Source: a virus
Taxonomy: Duplodnaviria; Heunggongvirae; Uroviricota; Caudoviricetes
Direction: 5' to 3' (one strand)
Length of the DNA stretch: 6,302 bases
IMG/VR virus record: IMGVR_UViG_2531839155_000008
Part shown: in pieces, positions 3,001-6,000 of the stretch
Layout: every line of letters begins with the position of its first letter
How positions within the stretch are numbered: position 1 is the first letter of the stretch
Program-made: the position numbers

Positions 3001-6000
3001 CGCGTGAACTTCCCACCGGGCGTCCGGCCATGCTGCATATTTTCGAGCCGGTGGAGGACGGGCAGACCCGTGGGGCCAACCAGTTTTACAGCGTCATGGA
3101 ACGGCTGAAGATGCTCGATTCCCTGCAGGCAACACAGCTTCAGTCGGCCATTGTGAAAGCCATGTATGCAGCGACGATTGAAAGTGACCTTGATACCGAA
3201 AAGGCCTTTGAATATATCGCCGGTGCGCCGCAGGGGCAGAAGGATAATCCGCTTATTAATATTCTGGAGAAGTTCTCCAGCTGGTATGACACGAATAACG
3301 TGACGCTGGGTGGTGTCAAAATTCCGCACCTTTTCCCCGGGGATGATCTGAAACTACAGACTGCGCAGGATTCAGACAATGGATTTTCGGCGCTTGAACA
3401 GGCGCTGCTGCGGTATATCGCCGCCGGTCTTGGCGTTTCCTACGAACAGTTGTCCCGTGATTACTCGAAGGTCAGTTATTCAAGTGCCAGGGCCTCTGCC
3501 AATGAGTCGTGGCGCTATTTTATGGGGCGGCGAAAATTTATTGCGGCCCGGCTGGCCACGCAGATGTTTTCCTACTGGCTGGAAGAGGCACTTCTTCGGG
3601 GGATTATCCGTCCGCCACGGGCGCGTTTTGATTTTTATCAGGCGCGATCAGCCTGGTCACGGGCAGAGTGGATTGGTGCCGGAAGAATGGCCATTGACGG
3701 GCTCAAGGAGGTTCAGGAATCGGTGATGCGCATTGAGGCCGGACTGAGCACGTATGAGAAAGAGCCGGCGCTGATGGGCGAGGATTATCAGGACATTTTC
3801 CGCCAGCAGGTCAGGGAATCTGCAGAGCGGCAAAAAGCCGGACTCTCACGTCCGGTGTGGATAGCGCAGGCGTATCAGCAGCAGATAGCGGAGAGTCGCA
3901 GGCCGGAAGAGGAGACAACACCCCGTGAGACGTAATCTTTCACACATTATTGCCGCAGCATTCAATGAACCGCTGCTTCTGGAGCCCGCCTATGCGCGGG
4001 TTTTCTTTTGCGCGCTCGGGCGCGAGATGGGGGCAGCAAGTCTTTCGGTACCACAGCAGCAGGTACAGCTTGATGCTCCCGGAATGCTGGCTGAAACGGA
4101 CGAGTACATGGCCGGAGGTAAACGACCGGCCCGTGTTTACCGGGTGGTGAACGGTATTGCTGTACTGCCGGTGACCGGCACGCTGGTGCACCGGCTGGGG
4201 GGTATGCGGCCATTTTCCGGAATGACAGGCTATGACGGCATTGTCGCCTGTCTTCAGCAGGCAATGGCGGATAGCCAGGTGCGGGGCGTACTGCTGGACA
4301 TTGACAGTCCGGGCGGGCAGGCCGCCGGCGCGTTTGACTGCGCTGACATGATTTACCGCCTCCGTCAGCAGAAGCCGGTCTGGGCACTGTGCAATGACAC
4401 GGCCTGTTCTGCAGCCATGCTGCTGGCGTCGGCCTGCTCCCGACGGCTGGTTACCCAGACATCCCGTATCGGCTCCATTGGCGTGATGATGAGCCATGTC
4501 AGCTATGCCGGTCATCTGGCGCAGGCCGGTGTGGATATCACGCTGATTTACTCAGGGGCGCACAAGGTGGATGGCAATCAGTTTGAAGCCTTACCGGCAG
4601 AGGTTCGCCAGAACATGCAGCAGCGCATTGATGCGGCGCGCCGGATGTTTGCCGAAAAAGTGGCCATGTTTACCGGTCTGTCTGTTGATGCCGTCACGGG
4701 AACAGAGGCCGCCGTTTTTGAAGGTCAGTCCGGCATTGATGCCGGGCTGGCGGATGAATTAGTCAATGCGTCGGATGCCATCAGTGTGATGGCCACGGCG
4801 CTGAACAGTAATGTCAGAGGAGGCACTATGCCGCAATTAACTGCAACGGAAGCCGCCGCGCAGGAGAACCAGCGAGTGATGGGGATCCTGACATGCCAGG
4901 AAGCGAAAGGACGTGAACAGCTTGCCACGATGCTGGCAGGACAACAGGGCATGAGCGTTGAACAGGCCCGGGCGATTCTGGCCGCGGCGGCACCGCAGCA
5001 GCCGGTGGCATCCACGCAGAGTGAAGCCGATCGCATTATGGCGTGTGAAGAAGCGAACGGTCGTGAACAACTGGCGGCAACGCTGGCGGCGATGCCGGAG
5101 ATGACGGTGGAAAAAGCCCGCCCGATCCTGGCTGCTTCACCGCAGGCGGATGCCGGACCCTCACTCCGTGATCAGATCATGGCACTGGATGAGGCAAAAG
5201 GGGCTGAGGCGCAGGCTGAACAGCTGGCTGCCTGCCCGGGAATGACTGTGGAGAGCGCCCGGGCTGTGCTGGCTGCCTGCCCGGGAATGACTGTGGAGAG
5301 CGCCCGGGCTGTGCTGGCTGCGGGATCAGGTAAGGCAGAACCGGTCTCTGCATCCACAACCGCCCTGTTTGAACGCATCATGGCGAACCATTCACCGGCT
5401 GCGGTACAGGGTGGCGTGCCACAGACGTCAGCAGACGGTGATGCGGACGTGAAAATGCTCATGGCCATGCCATGAAGTCAGTGCTGACCATCAACAGGAG
5501 GTTTTTACAATATGGTAACGAAAAACATCACTGAACAGCGTGCGGAAGTACGTATTTTTGCCGGTAATGATCCGGCTCATACCGCCACAGGCAGCAGCGG
5601 GATTTCCTCGGCAACACCGGCACTGACGCCCCTGATGCTGGATGAAGCCAGCGGGAAACTGGTGGTCTGGGACGGACAGAAAGCCGGTAGTGCAGTTGGC
5701 ATACTGGTACTGCCGCTTGAAGGCACAGAGACGGTACTGACCTATTACAAGTCGGGGACCTTTGCGACGGAGGCAATCCGCTGGCCTGAAAGTGTGGATG
5801 AACACAAAAAGGCAAATGCCTTTGCCGGCAGTGCCCTGAGTCACGCGGCGCTGCCGTAACACGTTATCAGGCCACCGCGGTGGCCTGACTGATTTCTGAA
5901 TGAAAGGAACTGATTTATGGGATTGTTTACGACCCGCCAGTTACTCGGTTATACCGAACAAAAAGTGAAATTTCGTGCGCTGTTTCTGGAGCTGTTTTTC

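Follow-up and report, generated by a model that had tools for sequence, protein, structure and literature searches.

The window analyzed here, a 6,302-nucleotide stretch of viral DNA (Caudoviricetes; IMG/VR record IMGVR_UViG_2531839155_000008), was identified by exact-sequence look-up as the entire 6302-bp scaffold JH956413.1 of draft assembly GCA_000304015.2 from Escherichia coli CB7326, a strain of serotype O rough:H7 that belongs to the O157:H7 lineage (PMC3271280). It contains a lambdoid head operon and is best explained as the head-gene module of Sp4, a defective lambdoid prophage of the phage 21 type in CB7326. Its gene for a head maturation protease/scaffold fusion, the homolog of lambda gpC and of phage 21 gene 5, encodes three copies of a motif of about 45 amino acids (aa), which are annotated in phage 21 as Tri boxes, and the third copy holds a perfect 45-bp tandem duplication. 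We consider it quite probable that the window represents an Sp4 head module with an ancient Tri-box triplication and a private, in-frame slippage duplication in Tri3 that is most likely neutral. The repeat architecture was already known, and the duplication is a rare, recent and probably recurrent slippage allele in a defective prophage.

Identity of the protease/scaffold gene

The gene product is 516 aa long, compared to the usual 501 aa, and it is matched exactly by the deposited protein WP_001254001.1 / EKI11535.1. As judged from the sequence, its N-terminal 300 residues are an S49 (SppA-like) serine protease: residues 146-293 matched Pfam Peptidase_S49 (PF01343) with E = 3e-35 and 121.9 bits (cut-off 24.9), the PHROG 53 head maturation protease was matched with E = 1.7e-228, and SppA chains in the PDB matched the product at E = 5e-16. 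Lambda gpC, which is 439 aa long as the original prediction had stated, showed 54% identity to the window protein. In the alignment of the two proteins, Ser162 in 'NDTACSAAMLL' was placed opposite lambda Ser166 in 'NDMNCSAGQLL', the residue that we take to be catalytic, and the lysine of 'SGxHKVDGN' was conserved. The S49 match and the identity to gpC bear out the earlier assignment of the gene as a lambda C/Nu3 homolog. The gene is located between the portal and the decoration/major capsid genes, and phage 21 gene 5 is 98.6% identical to it at the nucleotide level.

A putative scaffold gene, the analog of lambda Nu3 and of phage 21 gene 6, is nested in frame within the 3' part of this gene. 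Its start codon and ribosome-binding site (RBS) correspond to the annotated putative gene 6 coding sequence and RBS in M81255.1. The nested gene is 648 bp (215 aa) long in the window and 603 bp (200 aa) long normally, and the 45-bp duplication accounts for the whole of the excess. As lambda Nu3 (201 aa) and phage 21 gp6 (200 aa) are almost equally long, a length constraint was considered, and it was rejected because the annotated starts lie at non-homologous positions.

Downstream of the module array, the window encodes a conserved C-terminal tail (5323-5472, residues 467-516) with the pattern F..FM..HSP......D....LM.MP. Homologs from Salmonella and other enteric bacteria share this tail, and the lambda tail (LDRLMQGAP...LLNTPV) is related to it. 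From its sequence, it is a candidate capsid-targeting or cleavage segment.

The Tri-box triplication is an old trait of the phage 21 lineage

The phage 21 entry M81255.1, from 1993, already lists a 'Tri1 box', a 'Tri box' and a 'Tri3 box' as repeat regions inside the nested gene 6, all three labelled 'function unknown; putative'. When placed on the window, the first two of these GenBank boxes cover 4895-4998 and 5035-5145, and the Tri3 box covers 5176-5289 in the allele without the duplication. The peptide strings that the original prediction had quoted as a threefold repeat were located at residues 317-358, 370-407 and 417-451. Its claim that the 516-aa protein has three copies of the motif and lambda has one was confirmed both by alignment of the units and by a profile. 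The pairwise local alignment scores of the three units were 83-103, compared to 25-28 +/- 5 for 1000 shuffles (z = 10-15). By a profile built from the three units, the window has three full copies and a partial fourth, phage 21 gp5 has three copies and lambda gpC has a single one (residues 357-400). Lambda gpC also contains, letter for letter, the lambda motif quoted in the original prediction. The DNA identity between the three units was 62-67%, compared to 100% between the two 45-bp copies, which argues that the triplication is old and the duplication very young. In the literature collection searched, there was no description of the Tri boxes and no report on the effects of repeat number in lambda-type scaffolds, and the GenBank annotation is the sole source for the boxes.

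The region is carried by 1,870 of the 5,426 complete E. coli genomes. Sixty records were sampled by an even-step pick from 1,875 matching E. coli records, and the gene-6 span was exactly 603 bp in 58 of them, with one record at 546 bp and one partial. Alleles with as little as 93% identity keep the 603-bp length, and gene 6 has 600 coding bases in every one of the 20 full-length 21-type phage records. The three copies in these close homologs indicate a lineage feature, rather than an expansion in the window genome. From these sequence comparisons, the near-invariant length of gene 6 would point to selection against length change wherever the gene is in use.

Beyond the phage 21 lineage, one copy is the usual state. 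Among 1.84 billion representative proteins, the motif was detected by profile search in 487, and among the best 150 of these, 55 of the 56 near-full-length proteins have one copy and the remaining one has three. Other copy numbers were seen in natural variants from a protein homolog search that returned mostly gene fragments. In three E. coli prophage homologs with two copies (P0036, P0039 and P0040), Tri2 is lost or replaced by a Tri1/Tri2 hybrid, and a four-copy variant from a diverged lineage (P0044) has four nearly identical modules, which suggests a recent expansion or homogenization of its array.

The description of the motif as 'expanded' is therefore correct in one sense only. Relative to lambda, the triplication is an expansion in the evolutionary sense, with three copies against one; however, it is neither new nor specific to the window genome, as phage 21 homologs routinely carry three copies (M81255.1, 20 of 20 phages and 58 of 60 records). 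In summary, the triplication is ancient, typical of the whole phage 21 lineage and already annotated.

Anatomy and probable origin of the 45-bp duplication

Tandem Repeats Finder confirmed the perfect 45-bp repeat that had been reported, and it found this to be the sole array in the window (period 45, 2.2 copies, 100% matches, no indels); find_repeats listed the same repeat as family D1. The duplication is in frame, so that the 15-mer CPGMTVESARAVLAA occurs twice (residues 437-451 and 452-466), and the 15-residue insertion is unique to the window among 19 aligned homologs. The original prediction had taken the perfect identity of the copies as the mark of a very recent slippage-type event. This was upheld. 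The window minus one 45-bp copy is identical to the locus of the O157:H7 strain TR01 at 6257 of 6257 positions.

The boundaries of the duplication coincide with a 9-bp direct repeat, GCTGGCTGC, of which the ancestral allele has two copies. One encodes a Leu-Ala-Ala at the end of helix 2 of Tri3, and the other a Leu-Ala-Ala at the end of helix 3. The equivalent 9-mer pairs in Tri1 (GCTGGCAGG/TCTGGCCGC) and Tri2 (GCTGGCGGC/CCTGGCTGC) are imperfect, and the perfect pair in Tri3 alone may be the reason why the event is seen in Tri3. The most likely origin of the duplication, as read from the sequence, is slipped-strand mispairing, because the ancestral GCTGGCTGC copies are spaced by 45 bp and the array consists of 45 + 45 + 9 bases, a textbook pairing of substrate and product for this process. 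Mispairing between the two GCTGGCTGC repeats during replication would produce the 45-bp duplication, and this would give Tri3 a second copy of its loop and helix 3.

Rarity and probable recurrence of the duplication

The duplication was searched for with the 41-mer AGAGCGCCCGGGCTGTGCTGGCTGCCTGCCCGGGAATGACT, which spans the novel junction and of which neither half reaches the 28-base megablast word. Among the 5,426 complete genomes, it matched one, that of strain UTAK-4, and it gave no match in IMG/VR, in the GTDB species genomes or in the JGI metagenomes. The 45-bp duplication thus differs from the triple motif in that homologs do not routinely carry it, and the original prediction stands on this point.

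The UTAK-4 prophage is clearly distinct from the window, with 70 substitutions and 4 indels over 6.2 kb, including 8 substitutions in the protease/scaffold gene, and its capsid gene is intact. A comparison over 12.7 kb with the syntenic prophage of the O45:H2 strain FWSEC0003 gave 100% identity, with these 45 bp as the sole difference. Thus, for both duplication alleles, the nearest sister allele differs by the duplication only. Two backgrounds, each with a sister that differs only in this way, make two independent recent events the simplest account, and the sequences are most simply explained if the same duplication arose at least twice and the Tri3 site is a weak slippage hotspot.

The terL gene of the UTAK-4 prophage is frameshifted by a 14-bp deletion at record position 2924, which is absent from the UTAK-6 sister. 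The deletion is present in the UTAK-4 / FWSEC0003 prophage, where terL is annotated as frameshifted; the UTAK-6 prophage is near-identical otherwise and has an intact terL.

Defects of the prophage and likely consequence of the duplication

Three lesions were found in the head operon. In complete O157:H7 genomes, including TR01, nu1 (the terminase small subunit gene) is cut by the IS66-family element ISEc8 exactly at window position 1. The terL gene is frameshifted in a run of ten G (487-496). Finally, a deletion at about 6158-6167 fuses codon ~84 of gene E to the tail gene V, which takes out the rest of E together with FI, FII, Z and U. Sp4 has been described as defective in head formation and packaging (PMC2669165). 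The TR01 defects (nu1/ISEc8, terL and the E-V fusion) match the published description of Sp4, and the host element thus matches Sp4.

The terL frameshift could be the result of homopolymer slippage or of a systematic sequencing problem. At the site of the G run, the intact terL of phage 21 reads KMLLGVEAYFIEHK, and UTAK-4 and UTAK-6 each have one G fewer than the window. The Sp14-like copy of O157:H7 strain 4276 differs at window position 490, inside the run, and RefSeq marks both O157 terL copies as frameshifted, in contrast to PMC2669165, in which the terminase is described as intact in all lambdoid Sp prophages except Sp4, where nu1 is affected. At the E-V junction, two BLAST segments share a 10-nt overlap, which suggests that the deletion was microhomology-mediated. 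In the intact arrangement of the UTAK-4 prophage, tail gene V lies ~2.5 kb farther downstream. The junction occurs in about 300 of the 5,426 complete genomes, and in the O157:H7 genomes checked among those listed, it is found at two places each (Sp4-like and Sp14-like).

These defects bear directly on what the duplication may do. It is most likely neutral or mildly deleterious, and would be tolerated since the gene is no longer needed; the case for neutrality is that the element is unable to build heads on its own. Both duplication-bearing prophages have a frameshifted terL, which indicates that they are under relaxed selection. The suggestion that the changed repeat number alters capsid assembly is unlikely to apply at the window locus, because terL is broken and most of the major capsid gene is missing.

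Predicted structure and role of the modules

AlphaFold2 predicted a three-helix bundle for the 56-residue segment around Tri1 (window 4843-5010), with helices at 2-17, 25-32 and 39-48, a predicted local distance difference test score (pLDDT) of 92.7 and a predicted template modelling score (pTM) of 0.76. This single-unit model was made from an alignment of 75 units. The model of the whole 215-aa C-terminal domain repeated the single-unit helices at low confidence (pTM 0.26, pLDDT 60.5), and the linkers between the modules are short and rich in Pro, Ala and Gln. The models are consistent with modules that would fold independently as beads on flexible linkers. When the low-confidence 215-aa model was compared to the PDB by Foldseek, no hit reached E <= 0.001. 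The motif profile, run against PDB sequences, gave chance matches only, with no solved structure matched by sequence.

Lambda Nu3 interacts with itself and with C and B, and a two-hybrid screen also showed an interaction with E (PMC3224144). By analogy, the modules may be protein-binding or self-association units of the scaffold. It is exceedingly improbable that the motif is instead a helix-hairpin-helix DNA-binding element. Residues 427-450 do give a weak match to Pfam HHH (PF00633; E = 0.0081, 16.4 bits), but this score is under the Pfam gathering threshold of 24 bits, the match was rejected, and the second glycine of the hairpin is missing (PGMT instead of GIG).

The 15 duplicated residues correspond to the loop and helix 3 of the predicted Tri3 bundle. 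The third bundle would therefore have two candidate third helices, one of which would complete the bundle while the other would lengthen the adjoining linker.

Alternative explanations

Several observations weigh against a private, neutral slippage event in Sp4, and each bears on a different part of this reading. With regard to rarity, the junction search needs an exact word of 28 bases, so that duplications on alleles with a nearby single-nucleotide polymorphism would be missed. With regard to slippage, the reciprocal 45-bp deletion junction that this mechanism is expected to leave gave no match in E. coli genomes.

The source of the window is also a concern. The CB7326 duplication comes from a draft scaffold sequence. 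The Sp4-like and Sp14-like copies in complete O157:H7 genomes are identical across the window except at position 490, and the left end of the window is the exact point at which they diverge. This near-identity, with divergence at the window start, means that the scaffold may be a collapsed two-copy repeat contig, in which case either or both copies could carry the duplication. A step further, the duplication itself could be an artefact that arose when the CB7326 draft was sequenced or assembled, such as a mis-resolved bubble formed when the Sp4 and Sp14 head modules were collapsed. The window is a short, complete draft scaffold whose left end is the divergence point of two O157 copies that differ by one base across it, and the duplication is absent from all complete O157:H7 genomes among those listed. 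However, the same duplication is present in the independent finished genome of UTAK-4, so the event occurs in nature and an artefact is not needed as an explanation. Moreover, the duplication is exactly in frame and is flanked by the 9-bp repeat, as slippage predicts. The exact protein, WP_001254001.1, has the source name 'S49 family peptidase n=12 Tax=Escherichia coli', which hints at several deposits and thus at further carriers. On balance, an artefact is quite unlikely.

The recurrence of the duplication can also be questioned, since window 5015-6167 is identical in CB7326 and UTAK-4. A short gene-conversion tract within this interval would leave no trace and is an alternative to two events; the duplication would then have arisen once and spread among prophages via homologous recombination or gene conversion. 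Lambdoid prophages of Shiga toxin-producing E. coli are reported to recombine readily (PMC2669165). We nevertheless consider a single origin unlikely. The host lineages differ: CB7326 is O rough:H7, and the UTAK-4 prophage has its identical counterpart in an O45:H2 strain. Apart from the duplication, each of the two alleles also has the same sequence as a local sister allele that lacks it, and the 2,922 places examined in complete genomes yielded no further carrier.

Finally, Sp4 DNA can be packaged with the help of other prophages (PMC2669165), so that its gene products could still act in trans. The duplication might then be functional, if an extra helix in the third module shifts the valency or spacing of the scaffold and so alters the assembly of its own capsid or, in trans, that of co-resident 21-type prophages. 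The natural variation in module copy number (one in lambda, two in P0036, P0039 and P0040, three in phage 21 and four in P0044) and the helped packaging speak for such a role. Against it, the window prophage has lost most of gene E and its terL is broken, the two carriers are both defective, and the length of gene 6 is almost invariant, at 603 bp in alleles with identities as low as 93% and likewise in every isolated phage. A functional duplication is therefore very improbable. A remote prospect is that the module array is a tunable valency device of one to four bundles, and that the recurrent duplication has an effect: a defective prophage would then make a protease/scaffold with an aberrant third module, which would co-assemble with the capsid proteins of co-resident or superinfecting 21-type phages and disturb them as a poison scaffold.

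Significance

After these alternatives have been weighed, the eye-catching perfect repeat is best regarded as a private slippage mutation in a decaying prophage, with little importance in itself, and the threefold motif as a lineage trait annotated decades ago. Of more use may be the by-products of the analysis, which bear on the number of scaffold modules required by a lambda-like capsid. For the conserved Nu3 motif, to which no solved structure was matched by sequence search, the high-confidence prediction is a three-helix bundle that would fold autonomously. Natural homologs have between 1 and 4 copies of the motif, yet length is tightly conserved within the 21 lineage, and the Tri3 box appears to hold a recurrent slippage site.

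Features of the window

The coordinates of the repeats, the two overlapping reading frames and the neighbouring genes are given in Table 1. A scan of the window against Rfam returned no match.

Table 1. Positions of repeats and genes in the 6,302-nucleotide window.
Feature	Position	Strand	Details
Head maturation protease/scaffold fusion gene (lambda gpC homolog, phage 21 gene 5)	3925-5475	+	Open reading frame, 516 aa
Putative nested in-frame scaffold gene (lambda Nu3 analog, phage 21 gene 6)	4828-5475	+	Start ATG 4828; GAGGAGG at 4817-4823
Tri1 box, first copy of the ~45-aa motif	4861-4998	+	Residues 313-358; profile E = 3.9e-25
Tri2 box, second copy	5020-5145	+	Residues 366-407; profile E = 1.5e-27
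Tri3 box, third copy, holds the duplication	5161-5322	+	Residues 413-466; profile matches 413-453 and 449-466
Perfect 45-bp tandem duplication	5223-5321	+	Copies 5223-5267 and 5268-5312, then 9-bp GCTGGCTGC 5313-5321
9-bp direct repeat GCTGGCTGC	5223-5231, 5268-5276, 5313-5321	+	Two copies 45 bp apart in the ancestral allele
nu1, 3' end	from 1		First gene of the window
terL	170-2156		Two frames (170-511 and 462-2156)
W-like gene	2140-2346		
Portal gene	2343-3935		
HDPD decoration gene	5512-5859		
Major capsid gene (Phage_cap_E), first 88 codons	5917-6183		Runs into tail gene

Comparison with known systems

One of the closest known elements is Sp4 of E. coli O157:H7 Sakai (CP-933M-type), a prophage with the same ISEc8-disrupted nu1 and with defects in the head and in packaging (PMC2669165). 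The window matches the TR01 O157:H7 copy at every base except for 45 bp, and the difference is that the duplication is present in the window and missing from the complete O157:H7 genomes searched.

Phage 21 has the same operon order (terminase, gp3/W, portal, gene 5/6, shp/D, gene 7/E), the same three motif copies at identical positions, and the same nested start and RBS. It differs from the window in that the latter carries 45 extra bases in Tri3 (516 compared to 501 aa in the full product, and 215 compared to 200 aa in the nested one) and belongs to a defective prophage.

The likeness to lambda gpC/gpNu3 lies in the S49 domain with the aligned Ser166, the operon position, one C-terminal motif in common (RIMGILNCEEAHGREEQARVLAETPGMTVKTARRILAAAPQ) and a related C-terminal tail. 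In contrast to the 21-type proteins, which have three copies and no low-complexity linker of this kind, lambda has a single motif copy that follows a low-complexity linker of ~50 aa. The annotated nested start also differs, as it lies within the protease domain in lambda (Met239) and after the protease domain in phage 21 (Met302). Outside the phage scaffolds, the predicted three-helix-bundle fold and the beads-on-a-string layout of the modules are similar to those of the staphylococcal protein A domains and the GA modules.

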